Source: Octopus vulgaris
Lineage: Eukaryota
NCBI GenBank assembly: GCA_951406725.2
Contig: OX597817.1
Coordinates: 127,100,001 to 127,164,000 of the forward strand
Direction: 5' to 3'
Length of the DNA: 64,000 bases
Made by a program: the position numbers and the translations under genes. The notes under the pieces were generated by a model. The model saw only the letters and a program-made list of their open reading frames with translations. It was not told the origin of the DNA and did no database searches. Below, piece after piece: positions 4,615 through 61,745 of this stretch (its first letter is position 1; every line of letters starts with the position of its first letter).

Positions 4615-5288
4615 AAGTTTTTGAAAATTTTCCCCAAAAATTTTTGAAATATTTTTGGAAAATTTTCCTCGAAATGTTTGAAAATTTTCCTCGAAATGTT
4701 TGAAAATTTTCCCCAAAAATTTTCAACAATTTTTCCCAGAAATTTTGGAAAATTATTCCCAAAGTTTTTTCAAAATTTTCCCCAAAAATTTTTGAAAAAT
4801 TTTTTGATAATTTTTCCCCAAACTTTTTGAGAATTTTTCCCAAATATTTTTCAAAAATTTATGAAAATTACCTCCAAAAATTTTTAACAATTTTTCCCAA
4901 AGATTTTTCAAAATTTTTCACAAACATTTTTCAAAATTTTCCCCAAAACTTTTTTTCAAAATTTTTTTAAATATTCACTAAAAATTTGTGAAAAATTTTT
5001 TGAAAGTTTTCCTCATAAATTTTTGAAAATTTTCCTCAAAAGTTTTTGAAAATTTTCCCCAAAACATTTTTTTAAATCTCTTAAAAATTTTCCACAAAAG
5101 TTTTTGAAAAATTTTTGAAAATTTTCCTCAAAAAATTTAGAAAATTTTACCCAAAATTTTTGAAATTTTTCTCCAAAAATTATTTAAAATATTTGAAAAT
5201 TTTCTCCAAAAGTTTTTGAAAAATTTCCTGAAAATTTTCCTCAAAATTTTTTTTAATTTTTCTGAAAAAGTTTTGAAATTCTTTTCCT
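4615..5288. repeat. Degenerate ~22-bp (11-bp half-unit) minisatellite of A/T/C tracts
   Basis: Repeated units like ttttgaaaattttccccaaaaa over ~670 bp. The 4520..4843 ORF is a read-through of it. Confidence 0.85.
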
Positions 5289-8199
5289 AATTGATTTGAT
5301 TGATGAGCTGTGGCCATGCTGGGGCACCGCCATGTATGTATACATATATATAGGCATAATCACACTCCGTTCCTCCTCTAGGGATTATGTCCATAATATA
5401 GCTTTAAAGATTATTTTCATTTCGAGAGTGTAAATTATGTTGGGAACATTTGGAAGATACATGTAGATGATAATATCCGAATGATCCTCTTTAATAATCT
5501 ATACTTTCTTTTGCGCATTTTGAAACATTTAACAAAAAAATAATAATAATGTAAAAACACGAAACTTTATATACATATACATGAGCGTGCTTGTGTTTAA
5601 CTGTGAATTCAATTAATTAAAGCTAAAGAAACATTTATGCTTTAATTATGCATAATATAATGAACATGATGAGGCTAATACTCTCCAATATCGAAGTGCA
5701 TAAATTGTTTCCCGTTGAATTAACAAATTAATATTTGTAGCTTAAAAATATTATAACACGTAGAAATCTTGTTAATATCATGGAACAATATTCCAAATCA
5801 TTGTAAATTGTTTTCCTGTAGAATTGTATTACTTATGCCAGTATGATATGTGTTTTTTCAAATGGGTGACGTTGTATGTTTGCAATTAAGTCTGAAAATA
5901 TATTACGCTTCAGATGCCTTGTTATTTAATCTGTCAGTGGTATGTTCACTTTTAATACATATTCTTAAAATATAACGAAATCTTAGATTATCTTTGTTCA
6001 ATCCAAATTTCTTTGGCACCAAATGAATTTAAATTACGGCTTTTCCTATATGGTTTGGCATTATATATATCAGGGATGTCGAGTGATGTAGAAAAAAAGA
6101 AATTATGTTCGAAAAAATTGTTCTTACACAGCACTGAATGTTCAAAGTCAGTGGCTAAACTGAATGTAGTAGCAAGGCAGATATATTCAATACCTCAGTA
6201 TCACACACAAAGCAACCAACAAGAAGAATAGTTTAATGGAGCATGACAAATAAAGTGTGAAAGGAATGGTTGTAGAAAGACAGAGAAATACATGGAATGA
6301 AAATAAGAGGTAGAGTTTATGTGACAAGAAAGCATTACTATTAACTATTATTCGTTTAAGCTTATGTTGGGAAAATAACTCTGTTTGCAGAGAAAGTAGA
6401 AATGAGTTTTATTCCCAGCTAATCTAATTATTTGATCCCAAGGTAGTAGGGTCGCTTGGCGAAAGCTTGCTTTGGAACTGGTCAGCAATGTCTAAAGTTA
6501 TTATCTCCTAAATATTTGTTTTATCCAACTATACTTGCTATATGCAATGCTGATCTGTCTCACTGATGCGTTATATTATTTAATTTGTTCTCATTGTCAA
6601 TCACACAGGAAAGAAAATATTCAATTAATATATATTTCTGTAGGAAACTGTGAGCCACCAACTCTCTAACCGAGAAATAACCTGGGGGTCAGGTTTTATT
6701 AACTACCAAATAGTCGGTGCTTGGTACTTACCAGGTGTAAGTATACTAGTTTACTGTCTAATCAATGGCGGATCTCACCATGCTACAATTAAAAGCATTC
6801 TACAATCATATTAGATTTTCTCATACAGATCGACTGTAAGCGAAAATTATATACTGCGATGTCATCAAAGTATTGAAATACGTCTTGATAGCACATAGAC
6901 ATTAACTCGTAAATTACAGTACTGGTTCAGTAGCAGCAAGAAAAACTACACAAAATACAAATACGGGCTAATATATAATCAAAATTATGATAATTTGTAA
7001 AGGCATAACCATGACCCTGCCCAAATGAAATAGCTGTTGAGTCTTCAAAACAAATGATAAATTTCCATATTTCGGGGGAAAAAAACGGCAGAAGATGTGG
7101 GTCAGAGAAAAAAGGAATAAAACACCATATCAGTTTTAGTAGCAGGTACTGCGGCTTTAGCAAAAAGAATATGCTACATTTAGAAAATATACGGGTGAAA
7201 TTATGAGCATAGATTCATTTTCCAACATTCATAATAACTACAGAATAATTTAAGCGTGCGAATTCGGGACGTTATTCGCTGTTCAGAAAAGTGCTTTACA
7301 TTCTACAGATTCAATTAGAAAAATCGTGACTGTTACGAACGAAAATCTTGGGAGGATTGTAAATCATGAAATTATGCTGTCAAATGTAAAATAATTGAAA
7401 ACGAATTGTTTGGTCATGTGGAGCAACAGCTTTGCTCCTTGCCTCTATGAAATATTCTCTTGCATAGCGAAACGTTCTGTCAAAGAGAAATCAAAGGACT
7501 GCAATATGTTCTTTGCTTAGTATCAGAACCATCATATCGAAAGCATGAGTTTGGCTGACGAAAGATAAGGAGACTGGCAGGATGATGCATCATGTGCTAA
7601 AGGTTTTGTAATCTCTGTCATATAAATATTGAAGCAAAATTATCAAGGTTTCGGATTAGTAAACCGAAAATTCATGTGTTGCAGGCTAGTTTAGCAAAGT
7701 TGAGAAAAAATATATCCAAAGTTATAATATATGCTTGAGGAAAGTAGAAATGAATTTATTTTATTTCTCCACCTGTATAATATATTTCATAATTCATGGA
7801 GGGTTATAACACACGAAGGACTAAATATGAACTACAGGGAACATTTTTCGAGATTTACATCCAGTAATATCTACTTGAACTACACCTAACATCGCTAGTA
7901 TCATGAACCAATGCCACTGGAGAACATTTTTGAAACATTTTTAGTTGTCTTGCTTTTTACAATTTGTTGAAGCTGTGTTTAGGAATGCTCTCAGGAATTT
8001 TTTTCCACGTCAAGTTTTTTGTTAAACAAGGATTGATTTTTTTTTACCAAAACGTGTCAATTTTGCCATTGAATGCATTACTGAAATAGGAAACTAACAC
8101 AAGCCAAATAGTACGTTTTATTGTTTAACAGATATATTATACAAAATGTTTCATTACGCATCTTAGAATAGATATTTCTCTCAAACTGGAGTTTCAGCT

Positions 8200-17253: not shown

Positions 17254-17297
<44 letters not shown>

Positions 17298-17299
<2 letters not shown>

Positions 17300-17773
17300 T
17301 CAATTAGAACCAGTGGTCTAGCATATTAAAGAAAGAATCCGAAGATTAAAATATTTAATTTTATATAAATATTTGTTCTCTAACCGATAAATTAACTGCT
17401 GCTAACTATTAGCTGCAGGCTAGTTTACTCGGGTCTCATCGCGCAAAATTAGAGACATTTGAAATATATATTTCAAATGTAATAGGCCGTACTCCATGCA
17501 CGCGATATTTCGGTATCGTGTTGGCATTTAGTACAGAAAATTACATTTTATATGGGACCATGCTGATGATGGCTGCACTTTTCCTTGCGGAAAATAACAG
17601 CCGAAACTAAATTTAGTACATGGGTAAATATTTATTTCGTATATTTTTCATTTGTTTATTGTTTTGGTTTTGTGTTGAGTTTGATCTGAGAAAATAGACT
17701 TTTTGTGGAGAATGGCGATTTGACGTCTATATCTAGCATGTTGACTGTCCACTTTTCGTGTTCAGTCCTTAAT

Positions 17774-17778
<5 letters not shown>
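17298..17778 (+). mobile_element. Small hammerhead-bearing cassette between (TA)n tracts (Penelope pLTR/retrozyme-like)
   Basis: Bounded by the short inverted ends tatcaatta/taattgata and by (TA)n on both sides. Contains the hammerhead at 17558-17623. Confidence 0.6.
17558..17623 (+). ncRNA. Type I hammerhead ribozyme, intact core
   Basis: Stem I CCAUG/CAUGG, core CUGAUGA (17563-17569) plus an extra U, stem II GGCUG...CAGCC extended by UUUUCC/GGAAAA, GAAA (17603-17606), stem III ACUA-AAUU-UAGU, and cleavage triplet GUA (cut after 17618). Confidence 0.85.
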
Positions 17779-17812
<34 letters not shown>

Positions 17813-17841
17813 ACCATATGTATGCCTACATACATACGTTC

Positions 17842-17879
<38 letters not shown>

Positions 17880-25695: not shown

Positions 25696-25979
25696 ATCAG
25701 AGGCAGTAATAATACCGACAAGTGGTAATATAATTGCCCCTTAAACGCGGATATTCTCTTTATACAATCTCCAATGCCTCAGGTACCATTAAAGAAACTA
25801 TCATATTGGCACTTGTTGCAAAATGCTCTGTTCAATACTACATTTGTCGCTAACATATATATGTGTGCGTGTGCGTGGGCATGTCAGTGTGTGTGTGCAC
25901 CCGCTTGTGATTTTGTATATAGATATACTGGTGGGTGAGTGAGCGTGTATATCTCTGTATCTATCTATCTATCTATCTA

Positions 25980-36282: not shown

Positions 36283-36330
36283 GGACTTGATCGATTTCCC
36301 AGCCTTATTGGATACTCGTCAGATGTGTCT
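36283..36330 (-). ncRNA. Degenerate minimal hammerhead motif
   Basis: Minus strand reads ACAU-CUGACGA-GUAUCCAAUAAGGCUGG-GAAA-UCGA-UC-AAGU. The core is intact with palindromic AUCGAU stem III, but stems I and II carry mismatches. Confidence 0.5.
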
Positions 36331-39550: not shown

Positions 39551-39639
39551 ATAATATTTCAACTATAAAATTCATAATGAATAAATGGCAATATATCAAC
39601 TGTAAAATGTCAAAATATTTTATGTAAAGAAAAAGGAAT

Positions 39640-41715
39640 GTCAAGATCGTTTATAAGAAAAAAACCCACATCACCAATACGAAGGAAACGATGATACGGG
39701 AGTATGTGGAGAGAGAGAAGACGCTCAATGCTCATATGATGATGTTGTTAGACATCTTAGGGGCAAAAAAGGACACGGCCATCAACTTCCAGGCCACTAA
39801 TAACAACATCCCGGGACTGTATGGGCTACGCAAGGACCATAAGACGACCGCTGACATAATAACAGGACAACCAACGAAACCAGTCTGCGGAACCAATGTT
39901 ACGCACAACTACCGGATCTCCATCTTCCACTTTAGGATAACACGCCCTCTGATCAAAATCTTTCCAGATGTGTGTGATAGCACAAAGGACATTCCCAGGA
40001 GAGTCGATGAATGAAACCATGCTTACGACCTGACGGGATGCATAATTGGCAGTATGGATGTAGTATCAATGTACCCATCCATTGATATTGATTTTTCTGT
40101 GGAGAAATGTGTGGAGGTGATCAGTGAGAGTCATGTGGAGTTTCGTGGTGTTATCACATAAGAACTGGACCTCTTCCTGAGACTGACATGCAACAATGAT
40201 TACTTAGATGAACATGACCTTAGTCATTTCTGACCCACTAGAATTGGTAAGACTATAAATTCTATCGCCAAGAAGACTCCTAAAGAGAAATAAAACGGGT
40301 GGCCCAGAGCTATACGGAACCCCGAAAACGTTGATCGGGTTAAAAAGATGGACGCACATGCGTGGAGTGCGAGTAACAAGACCACGCTCAAGGGCCACAT
40401 ATGCAATCTTTATGACAAGATATACGCCCGAAGGAAGGTGTAGCCTTCGATGTCAGTATCGCTGGGGATACGGCCACCCTATTTATGGTACAATCCCAGG
40501 ATGTTGTTATTAGTGGCCTGGAAGTTGATGGTGGAATAGGAAACTCAAAGGAAAATTAGCAGAGAACTTCATAATCTTAACCATGTACTCCCGCTTTGTG
40601 GATGATCTGAACATAGTAGCCAAAGCACCCTTACAAGACAATGTTAATGATCTAGAAGCTAACACAATGGAGAGCATCCAGCAAAAAGCTAACTCCATCC
40701 ACCAGCGTATAAATGTAACGATACACCACCTTAACAAGCACCCTAACTATAGCCTACCGTTTTACACACGAAACTCTGGCTAGAAACTAAGAACAGTAAG
40801 GTCTAGAGCCTTCACTCCTATTCTTTCAAACTCATGGCTTCTATGTAACTTGTTCACAAAAAGCACAGCTATTGCTGACAACCCCAAGTTCAACATCCTT
40901 ATAGTTGACTTGGTGAGAGTGGCGAGGAATGTGTCTTGCATGTGCGACCCTATGGAATTGAAAAGACACATGCAACACTTCATCCACTGCATGCAGTACT
41001 CTGGTTACAAAGGGACAGAATGAGAGTGTAGAAAGGATCCAGGACTAAGTACAAAGCCATCATATAGGGTGATGCTAAGGAGATATGCCCGCTATACTGG
41101 AGTAAACCCAGAAACAGCACAGAAAGGACCAGAAATAAGACAGATAATGCCAACTCATGGCATGCCAACAAAAATATCAGAGTCTCAGGTTCGTTAATGC
41201 TACTTCTGGCAACGAACTAACATACATTTTTAGAAAACATTAAGTAACACTAATTTACGGATTAAAGTAGTAGAAAGGACTGGTGACTCTGTAAAATTCA
41301 TGATCCGTAGAACTTATCCCTTTGATAAGGCCCCATGTAGGGGAAGCAATTTTACTGTATGTAGGATGAACCCACGGGTTAACTAAGGTTAGGAATATAG
41401 TGTATAGCTTCCGATGTACTGAGGTACAGTGCAGAAACACGACAACTACTTACATTGAAGAAACTGTACGTAGCAGAGGGGAGCGTATATGTGAACACTA
41501 GTGAGATCTCAAAGAAGACGCAGACTCTACCAACACGGCCAAGAAGAACATAGAAGCTTAATAAATAGCATAGAGGTTTCGGTATTATAGATGTATAGAT
41601 GTGACACGACGCTTAGACAGATCACAGAGTCTACACACATTACAATAGACAGACAGAGCCTCAATAGAAATCACGAATGGAGCTGAGGGGAAGGTTATAG
41701 TGCTACTAAGAACAC
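39640..41715 (+). mobile_element. Penelope-like retroelement (Neptune-like), RT + GIY-YIG, pseudogenised
   Basis: In order: PGLYGLRKDHK...PTKPVC (RT1/2), GSMDVVSMYPSI (motif A), EG..F.VSIAG (B), MYSRFVDD (C), HCMQYSGY, a decayed Cys linker PFDKAPCRGSNFTVC, and NIVYSFRCTEVQC...TYIEETVRSRGERICEH (GIY-YIG). Many stops and frameshifts. Confidence 0.9.
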
Positions 41716-61118: not shown

Positions 61119-61745
61119 AGGGTTGGGAACTAGGTTCCCGCGTTTTTTTTTAAATTGAATTATTTTAAAAGGTTTATTAAAAAATAACAAATAATTAATC
61201 AATGATGTATTCACCCTTGTTTTTTACAGCTCCTTACCAACGATCAACAAGATTTTTCGCTCGAAAAGTTGATCGAACCAAGCTCTCAATTCTGCATCAG
61301 TATTCAACGAAACTCCACGCATAGCATTTGAAAGAGATCGTAAGAGGTGGAAATCCGTTCGTGCCAAATTCGGAGAGTACGGCGAGTGTGGTAGCACTTC
61401 CCAGCCATGAGTTTCAATGGCTTCCTTGGCTATATTGGCGATATGAGGGAGTGAGTTGTCGTGCAGCAGAAGAATTCCATGCTCCCGATTAGATCTTTTC
61501 TCTTGAATCTGTAATAGCCGTGTTGAGTCGTTCCATCTGTTGAACATAGTATTTCCGCGTTGACCGTTTGGTTCCGTTCAACCAATTCGTAATGGAGAAT
61601 CCCTTCCCAGTCCCACTATACGCACAACATCGTTTTACGCGGATAAAGATCTTAATTCACACGCGGTGTCGCTTGTTTACCGAGACTAAGTCATTCCTTA
61701 TACTGCTTCATATTGATGTACAGGCACAATTTTTCGTATTACATT
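61119..61745 (-). mobile_element. Mariner transposon 3' half with terminal sequence
   Basis: ORF 61224..61547 HGILLLHDNSLPH...WEVLPHSPYSPNLARTDFHLLRSL. Upstream frame KTMLCV*WDWEGILHYELVERNQTVNAE. TIR-like TA|gggttgggaac near 61119. Confidence 0.9.

Follow-up and report, generated by a model that had tools for sequence, protein, structure and literature searches.

Non-LTR retrozymes, reported from coral, mussel and axolotl (Cervera and de la Pena 2020) and from vertebrates (Li, Clavereau and Pollet 2026), are described as short, non-coding units of low GC content with one type I hammerhead ribozyme, which occur as monomers and tandem arrays, are predicted to be highly paired and share their genomes with Penelope-like elements (PLEs) (PMC7229834; bioRxiv 10.64898/2026.07.22.740005). 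Hammerheads are also carried by the pseudo-LTRs (pLTRs) of PLEs, where the account of Cervera and de la Pena (2014, PMC4209133) gives an unpaired base that separates position 9 from 10.1, a G10.1-C11.1 pair, a 5-bp helix I and a palindromic helix III. Insertions of EN+ PLEs are reported with partial tandems, an inverted 5'-truncated copy, a tail at one end and (TA)n (Craig et al. 2021, PMC8557442). How PLEs and retrozymes are primed and integrated is still a matter of proposal in these reports (PMC4209133, PMC7229834, PMC8557442, bioRxiv 10.64898/2026.07.22.740005), two of which propose rolling-circle copying of one RNA circle (PMC7229834, PMC4209133). At the level of titles and abstracts in mainly open-access literature, with repeat databases outside the scope of the search, no retrozyme or hammerhead family has been described from an octopus or other cephalopod.

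The repeat that we found in Octopus vulgaris has all of these retrozyme, pLTR-hammerhead and insertion traits and departs from each system in a few respects. Its unit of 505-518 bp compares with 150-450 bp in PMC7229834 and 51-972 bp in bioRxiv 10.64898/2026.07.22.740005, and its helix I has 5+4 bp and its helix II 5+6 bp, each interrupted by an internal loop, as against 6 and 4 bp in the retrozymes of these reports. In none of four intact PLE families of the octopus genome was a pLTR homologous to it found, whereas 24 of 57 Xenopus families are reported to match known elements, nearly all of them PLEs. Unlike the pLTR hammerheads of PMC4209133, it has a real 4-bp helix III with a loop and no coding region, and the extra nucleotide between 9 and 10.1 varies by subfamily (U, A or absent). 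Unlike the EN+ PLE insertions of PMC8557442, it is non-autonomous, and its tail is about 90-95 nt long rather than 30-40 bp. We conclude, with a probability of about 0.8, that the hammerhead studied here belongs, as its ribozyme module, to a non-coding non-LTR retrozyme of ~510 bp with many copies and Penelope-type ends, and that its copy in the window (the whole 64,000-nt stretch of DNA analysed) is recent, truncated and likely a dead end. The family is new to this work and is likely moved by PLE enzymes. This reading combines what was observed directly (copy number, insertion anatomy, the position of the ends, covariation and the presence of intact PLEs in the same genome) with cleavage, circularisation, priming and the helper's identity, which are inferred.

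The window copy, at 17293-17775, is a truncated copy of a dispersed repeat and not a solitary host element. Its parts are as follows.

17254..17295, no strand: (TA)n tract on the left flank, the target microsatellite (Tandem Repeats Finder).
17293..17357, minus strand: inverted short arm, unit positions 436-500, which fall in the tail that separates the two fixed 3' ends described below (blastn).
17353..17775, plus strand: sense arm, covering positions ~4-430 of the 512-bp unit and terminating at fixed end A (alignment).
17455..17480, plus strand: perfect 26-nt palindrome, a predicted hairpin within the unit (opposite-strand self-match).
17489..17535, plus strand: long predicted hairpin 5' of the hammerhead (sequence and unit fold).
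17550..17631, plus strand: whole hammerhead, including the extended stem I, stem II and palindromic stem-loop III (fold and covariation).
17776..17859, no strand: (AT)n tract on the right flank, the target microsatellite (Tandem Repeats Finder).

The order is (TA)n, inverted arm, sense arm, (TA)n; non-LTR retrozymes are described with a target-site duplication of more than 4 bp where there is one, and here both flanks are formed by (TA)n. The inverted arm was identified by blastn of a natural 512-nt unit taken from locus L019 (97% identity), and the sense arm is 97-98% identical to dispersed and tandem copies. Retrozyme arrays were found at L021, L022, L085 and L087; the window copy has a single hammerhead and ~430 of 512 nt in sense orientation, and with one ribozyme and less than one unit it cannot itself release unit-length RNA. 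It contains no frame of 100 aa or more, and its 65-aa frame has no Pfam match. The short repeats that flank it resemble octopus SINEs.

We verified a type I hammerhead motif in the window sequence, with a predicted cut between 17618 and 17619 on the plus strand. All the structural details of the sequence-only reading (stems, core, extra U, palindrome and GUA) agree with the sequence, all on the plus strand:

17558-62/17619-23, plus strand: stem I, 5 bp.
17563-69, plus strand: CUGAUGA core.
17570, plus strand: extra U after the CUGAUGA core and before stem II.
17571-75/17598-602, plus strand: stem II, 5 bp, followed by a 3x3 internal loop.
17579-84/17589-94, plus strand: stem II extension, 6 bp.
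17603-06, plus strand: GAAA core.
17606-17617, plus strand: 12-nt palindrome forming stem-loop III.
Last base 17618, plus strand: GUA triplet.

That reading had not included a further 4 bp of stem I (17550-53/17628-31), which lie behind a 4x4 internal loop and covary. It was correct in assigning the ribozyme to the PLE/retrozyme kind of type I hammerhead, with a palindromic stem III competent for dimers; the Rfam check that it proposed returned no hammerhead match for the region, either at the gathering score or at E<=10. The bare core motif without helices occurs at chance level (two found in the window against 1.5 expected). The hammerhead is the minimum-energy fold of 17540-17640, with an energy that is unremarkable taken alone (z -1.3). 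Ten bases around the cut site occur a second time 84 nt upstream, at 17527-17536, where they fall in the 3' arm of the long hairpin. A second core-like match, at 36284-36322 of the window on the minus strand, has unconvincing helices and may be chance or a decayed copy.

The window hammerhead probably cleaves, given that its active fold is predicted to lie within 0-2.4 kcal/mol of the minimum across six sequence contexts. In the five longer contexts stem I has a predicted pair probability of 0.08-0.56 and is often out-competed. Stem-loop III has no predicted stability as a lone hairpin and -10.8 kcal/mol as a duplex, and for two linked copies the double-hammerhead form is the predicted minimum (-48.9 versus -41.0). 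Monomeric hammerheads of coral and mussel are reported to cleave (PMC7229834), so cleavage as a monomer is also likely here, with 4 bp in helix III. Among nine predicted Xenopus retrozyme dimers, one is reported to have cleaved in vitro (bioRxiv 10.64898/2026.07.22.740005).

The ribozyme belongs to a large family. In the 2.8-Gb genome (G000), a hammerhead pattern that included part of stem I had 761 matches against one for a reversed control (the first 100 listed of these relaxed-pattern matches were inspected), exact cores of the window subfamily numbered 96 against 0, and a 24-mer from the unit had 2,303 exact matches against 0. A 91-nt query gave at least 45 matches, at least 16 of them identical end to end, the window included, among the best 40 of 720 candidates scored. 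Tandem loci have a unit of 512 bp, or 505-507 bp in sister subfamilies, and head-to-tail arrays have a period of 505-518, with up to five sense units seen in one array. Older subfamilies are 69-88% identical to the unit; the family spans ~70% to 100% identity, and several age classes of the ~510-bp unit are present. As a circle the unit folds better than its shuffles (z -4.6; minus strand z -5.6), and a tRNA scan of two arrays found no tRNA module. Runs under six organism labels contain parts of the window stretch, so the family is probably common to related species.

We evaluated covariation in 21 sequences, hand-picked from 39 distinct variants to span the subfamilies. In this set 96% of cells are paired and 11 of the 24 pairs have changed on both sides, compared with 1-3 in slid controls. 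The core and part of stem I carry no weight here because the search pattern fixed them; the covariation that counts is that of stem II and of the two extensions, in stems I and II. Subfamilies as low as ~70% in identity thus keep the fold through compensatory changes, which argues that the ribozyme is selected at the level of the element. Among 16 distinct variants of stem-loop III, 13 are self-complementary, with no more than a single mismatch at the centre; one of these 13 does not belong to the family. This self-complementarity, which runs through the stem III loop, indicates use of the dimer. Three sets of unpaired bases are nearly fixed, namely GUAA at 17624-27, CA at 17576-77 and UAA at 17595-97, and suggest a tertiary contact. 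The canonical type I hammerhead is described with a 6-bp helix I, a 4-bp helix II and a UNmYN/RNnA loop contact (motif: PMC2632901). Here the helices are 5 + 5 bp, loop 1 contains a conserved U, and loop 2 starts with C and ends in a conserved A; the suggested contact resembles the published motif only in part.

The manner of insertion was evaluated in a survey of 83 insertions at 81 loci, from which overlapping loci were excluded. The 3' ends fall at two fixed points, A and B, about 90-95 nt apart, each followed in the unit by an identical UA-rich 13-mer. An A arm is combined with a B arm of the opposite strand in 51 of the 83, and A+A or B+B combinations number zero; the remainder have one arm (24/83) or one irregular end (8/83, the window copy among them). 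(TA)5 adjoins 123 of the 133 A or B ends (71/75 for A, 52/58 for B) against a background of 11%. The copies have the anatomy of head-to-tail arrays with inverted 5'-truncated arms and a one-sided tail. Their 5' boundaries lie within 5 nt of the cut in 4 of 105 cases, where about 2.7 would be expected if uniform; since a linear cut monomer would pile them up there, the template ran through the cut site.

Comparison of 29 cut-to-cut units gave a second view of the template. The array at L087 has 0 differences among four units and 1 to its inverted unit, compared with 4-9 to the subfamily's other loci. Units differ by 0 in L023 and by 1-3 in L022, each versus 3 or more to other loci. Two arrays are less uniform (6-14 differences between units in L021, 0-8 in L085), which is explained by age, and which multimeric templates would explain too. 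Ends away from the cut together with near-homogeneous young arrays are consistent with rolling-circle reverse transcription of a circular RNA.

Under the retrozyme reading, the life cycle would run as follows. Tandem arrays would be transcribed, and successive hammerheads would excise unit-length RNA, with stem III pairing either inside a single ribozyme or, as a 12-bp duplex, between two of them. The unit RNA would then be circularised by a host ligase. The reverse transcriptase (RT) and GIY-YIG endonuclease of an autonomous PLE, the putative helper, would nick a (TA)n tract, and cDNA would be primed at the two fixed UA-rich RNA sites about 90-95 nt apart, one for each target strand. Reverse transcription rolling round the circle would then yield arrays, inverted arms and random 5' truncations.

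The strongest competitor keeps the element and its PLE helper and replaces the circle with a linear multimeric read-through template, on which the hammerhead frees only a 5' end or is slow. Ends distant from the cut site would arise equally from an uncut multimer, as would tandem arrays; some arrays are heterogeneous, and PLE-type hammerheads with the extra nucleotide are reported to cleave poorly in vitro (PMC4209133). However, the majority of insertions fall short of two units in length, and unless some step rebuilt the arrays, multimeric donors would dwindle. In young arrays the units and inverted arms are nearer to each other than to other loci, the helices have been preserved by compensatory change over ~30% divergence, and retrozyme circles are reported as demonstrated in coral, mussel and axolotl (PMC7229834). 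We therefore regard a linear template as unlikely.

Assembled RNA contigs of four runs under two organism labels, which come without read ends, strand or expression level, gave one further observation. One X2 contig (a single study, with the family's alleles) extends from site A across the tail and into the following unit, ending 4 nt short of the cut. A loose end in X2 resembles a template-switch cDNA adaptor that is by chance similar to the sequence at the cut site, and we rejected it as a sign of cleavage. Among the assembled contigs of X1, whose alleles are those of the family and not of the window copy, none spans the cut with 31 letters on each side.

Candidate helpers are present in the genome. 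We found at least four intact PLE families (A-D) with frames of 775, 775, 1312 and 781 aa, and Pfam confirmed RT and GIY-YIG domains in two of them. Three intact families were checked, and all have the two-end pattern in (TA)n; their tails measure about 32-57 nt. A covariance model of the window hammerhead had no match in families A, B and C (26 loci), blastn and local alignments of the unit to the 3' regions of families A-D gave only weak AT-rich matches (z <=3.2), and no terminal repeat homologous to the unit was found among the four intact families. As the unit and these families have no sequence in common, it is by anatomy that we infer the helper. No RT or GIY-YIG frame is attached to the repeat in the window copy or in the loci examined.

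The copies could instead be terminal repeats standing alone (pLTR fragments) and derived from an autonomous PLE still to be discovered, and not an independent non-autonomous family. The extra nucleotide between 9 and 10.1 and the palindromic helix III are traits of PLE hammerheads (PMC4209133), and our comparison covered four intact families, with 150 of 6,136 GIY-YIG candidates scored. In the loci examined, however, the unit adjoins itself head-to-tail and has (TA)n at its borders, and in no case a sense-oriented PLE coding region; a decayed PLE that lies near one copy (L078) is on the opposite strand, with other repeats between. The several age classes of the ~510-bp unit also stand against a fragment origin, which we consider very improbable.

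Within the retrozyme reading, it is possible, although we hold the view tentatively and at somewhat under even odds, that the family is a free-standing and long-lived lineage without a parent pLTR, which uses PLE enzymes in trans, inserts by rolling-circle copying of an RNA circle, primed from both target strands at two fixed UA-rich sites, and makes an undescribed tertiary contact between internal loops (the GUAA of stem I with the CA/UAA of stem II). If true, this would make it an unusually clean natural system for how PLEs choose and prime RNA circles. The PLE/retrozyme priming model becomes testable here, since the family offers a pair of fixed priming sites and a known target, and the genome four intact candidates for the helper. 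The window locus itself matters little, being one young truncated copy among hundreds; the family is a large retrozyme lineage missed by Rfam, and it offers a natural series of ribozyme variants (an added U, an added A or neither; G-C, G-U or U-U as the basal pair of stem II; stem III palindromes of several forms).

Other hammerheads and PLEs were noted alongside. Intact PLE families C and D carry variant hammerheads in their 3' regions (L139-L148 and L179-L188, read by eye), of which that of C has a C at position 9 and that of D seems to have the U3-A8 variant of the core reported from Schistosoma PLEs; a motif descriptor search found no hammerhead in families A and B. In families A, B and D an upstream frame overlaps the RT frame in another phase (L111-L126, L179-L188), and the 3' region of family D contains motifs repeated in tandem. 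The window contains a decayed autonomous-type PLE at 39628-41700 (plus strand) with RT motifs, a GIY-YIG remnant and many stops and frameshifts, whose first frame is 59% identical to the intact 1312-aa family. A second short repeat family with a hammerhead was seen at L115:6560-7000 (minus strand), with an inverted arm and (TA)n anatomy, an AUA triplet, a tandem period of about 450-500 and 3,142 first-look candidates. A related copy at L179:~7020-7480 aligns weakly with the 3' part of the window-family unit (z 5.8), which is not the case for the copy at L115. A third hammerhead-bearing piece, with a palindromic stem III, lies between (TA)n tracts at L117:8530-8890 (minus strand), and further unrelated hammerhead-like motifs occur at L078:4324-4404, L084 and L184.

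The sequence-only reading had supposed that the intact window copy was either young or under selection. Youth is supported: the copy differs from its nearest relative in 4 of 407 columns (1.0%; median 1.8%). Selection at this locus is not needed to explain it, given the identical copies elsewhere and a lack of private changes that is unsurprising. Outside the ribozyme 344 columns contain 5 private changes; inside it 66 columns contain 0, where about 1 would be expected without selection, so that the probability of seeing none is near 0.4. The copy is likely intact through youth and not through host need. Across young copies the rate of rare variants is 0.28% inside the ribozyme and 0.53% outside, a difference that we set aside because the copies were found through the ribozyme; in a sample chosen independently of it, 7 of 30 arms reach the ribozyme and all 7 cores are intact, from only 3 loci.

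The least probable explanation is that the host retains the window copy to cut a pre-mRNA or long transcript: the ribozyme is intact, its predicted fold is close to the minimum in all six contexts, and about 43% of Xenopus retrozyme copies are reported to be intronic (bioRxiv 10.64898/2026.07.22.740005), so that a host transcript may be cut by chance, but 66 nt free of private changes are to be expected even where selection is absent, identical 91-nt copies stand in at least 15 other places, and no host exon was found by Pfam in 150 of 229 selected frames (of 640 in the window). Those 150 frames gave three sub-threshold transposase matches and one sub-threshold match at chance level. The latter is a 55-aa frame at 25804-25968 of the window (minus strand) with a cysteine-rich toxin match (E 0.0066, 150 frames) that is probably chance. 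Mariner-like transposase remnants, below the Pfam cut-off, lie at 1285-1605 and 61227-61656 (minus strand), and a degenerate A/T-rich minisatellite with periods of 11-115 occupies 4618-5278.
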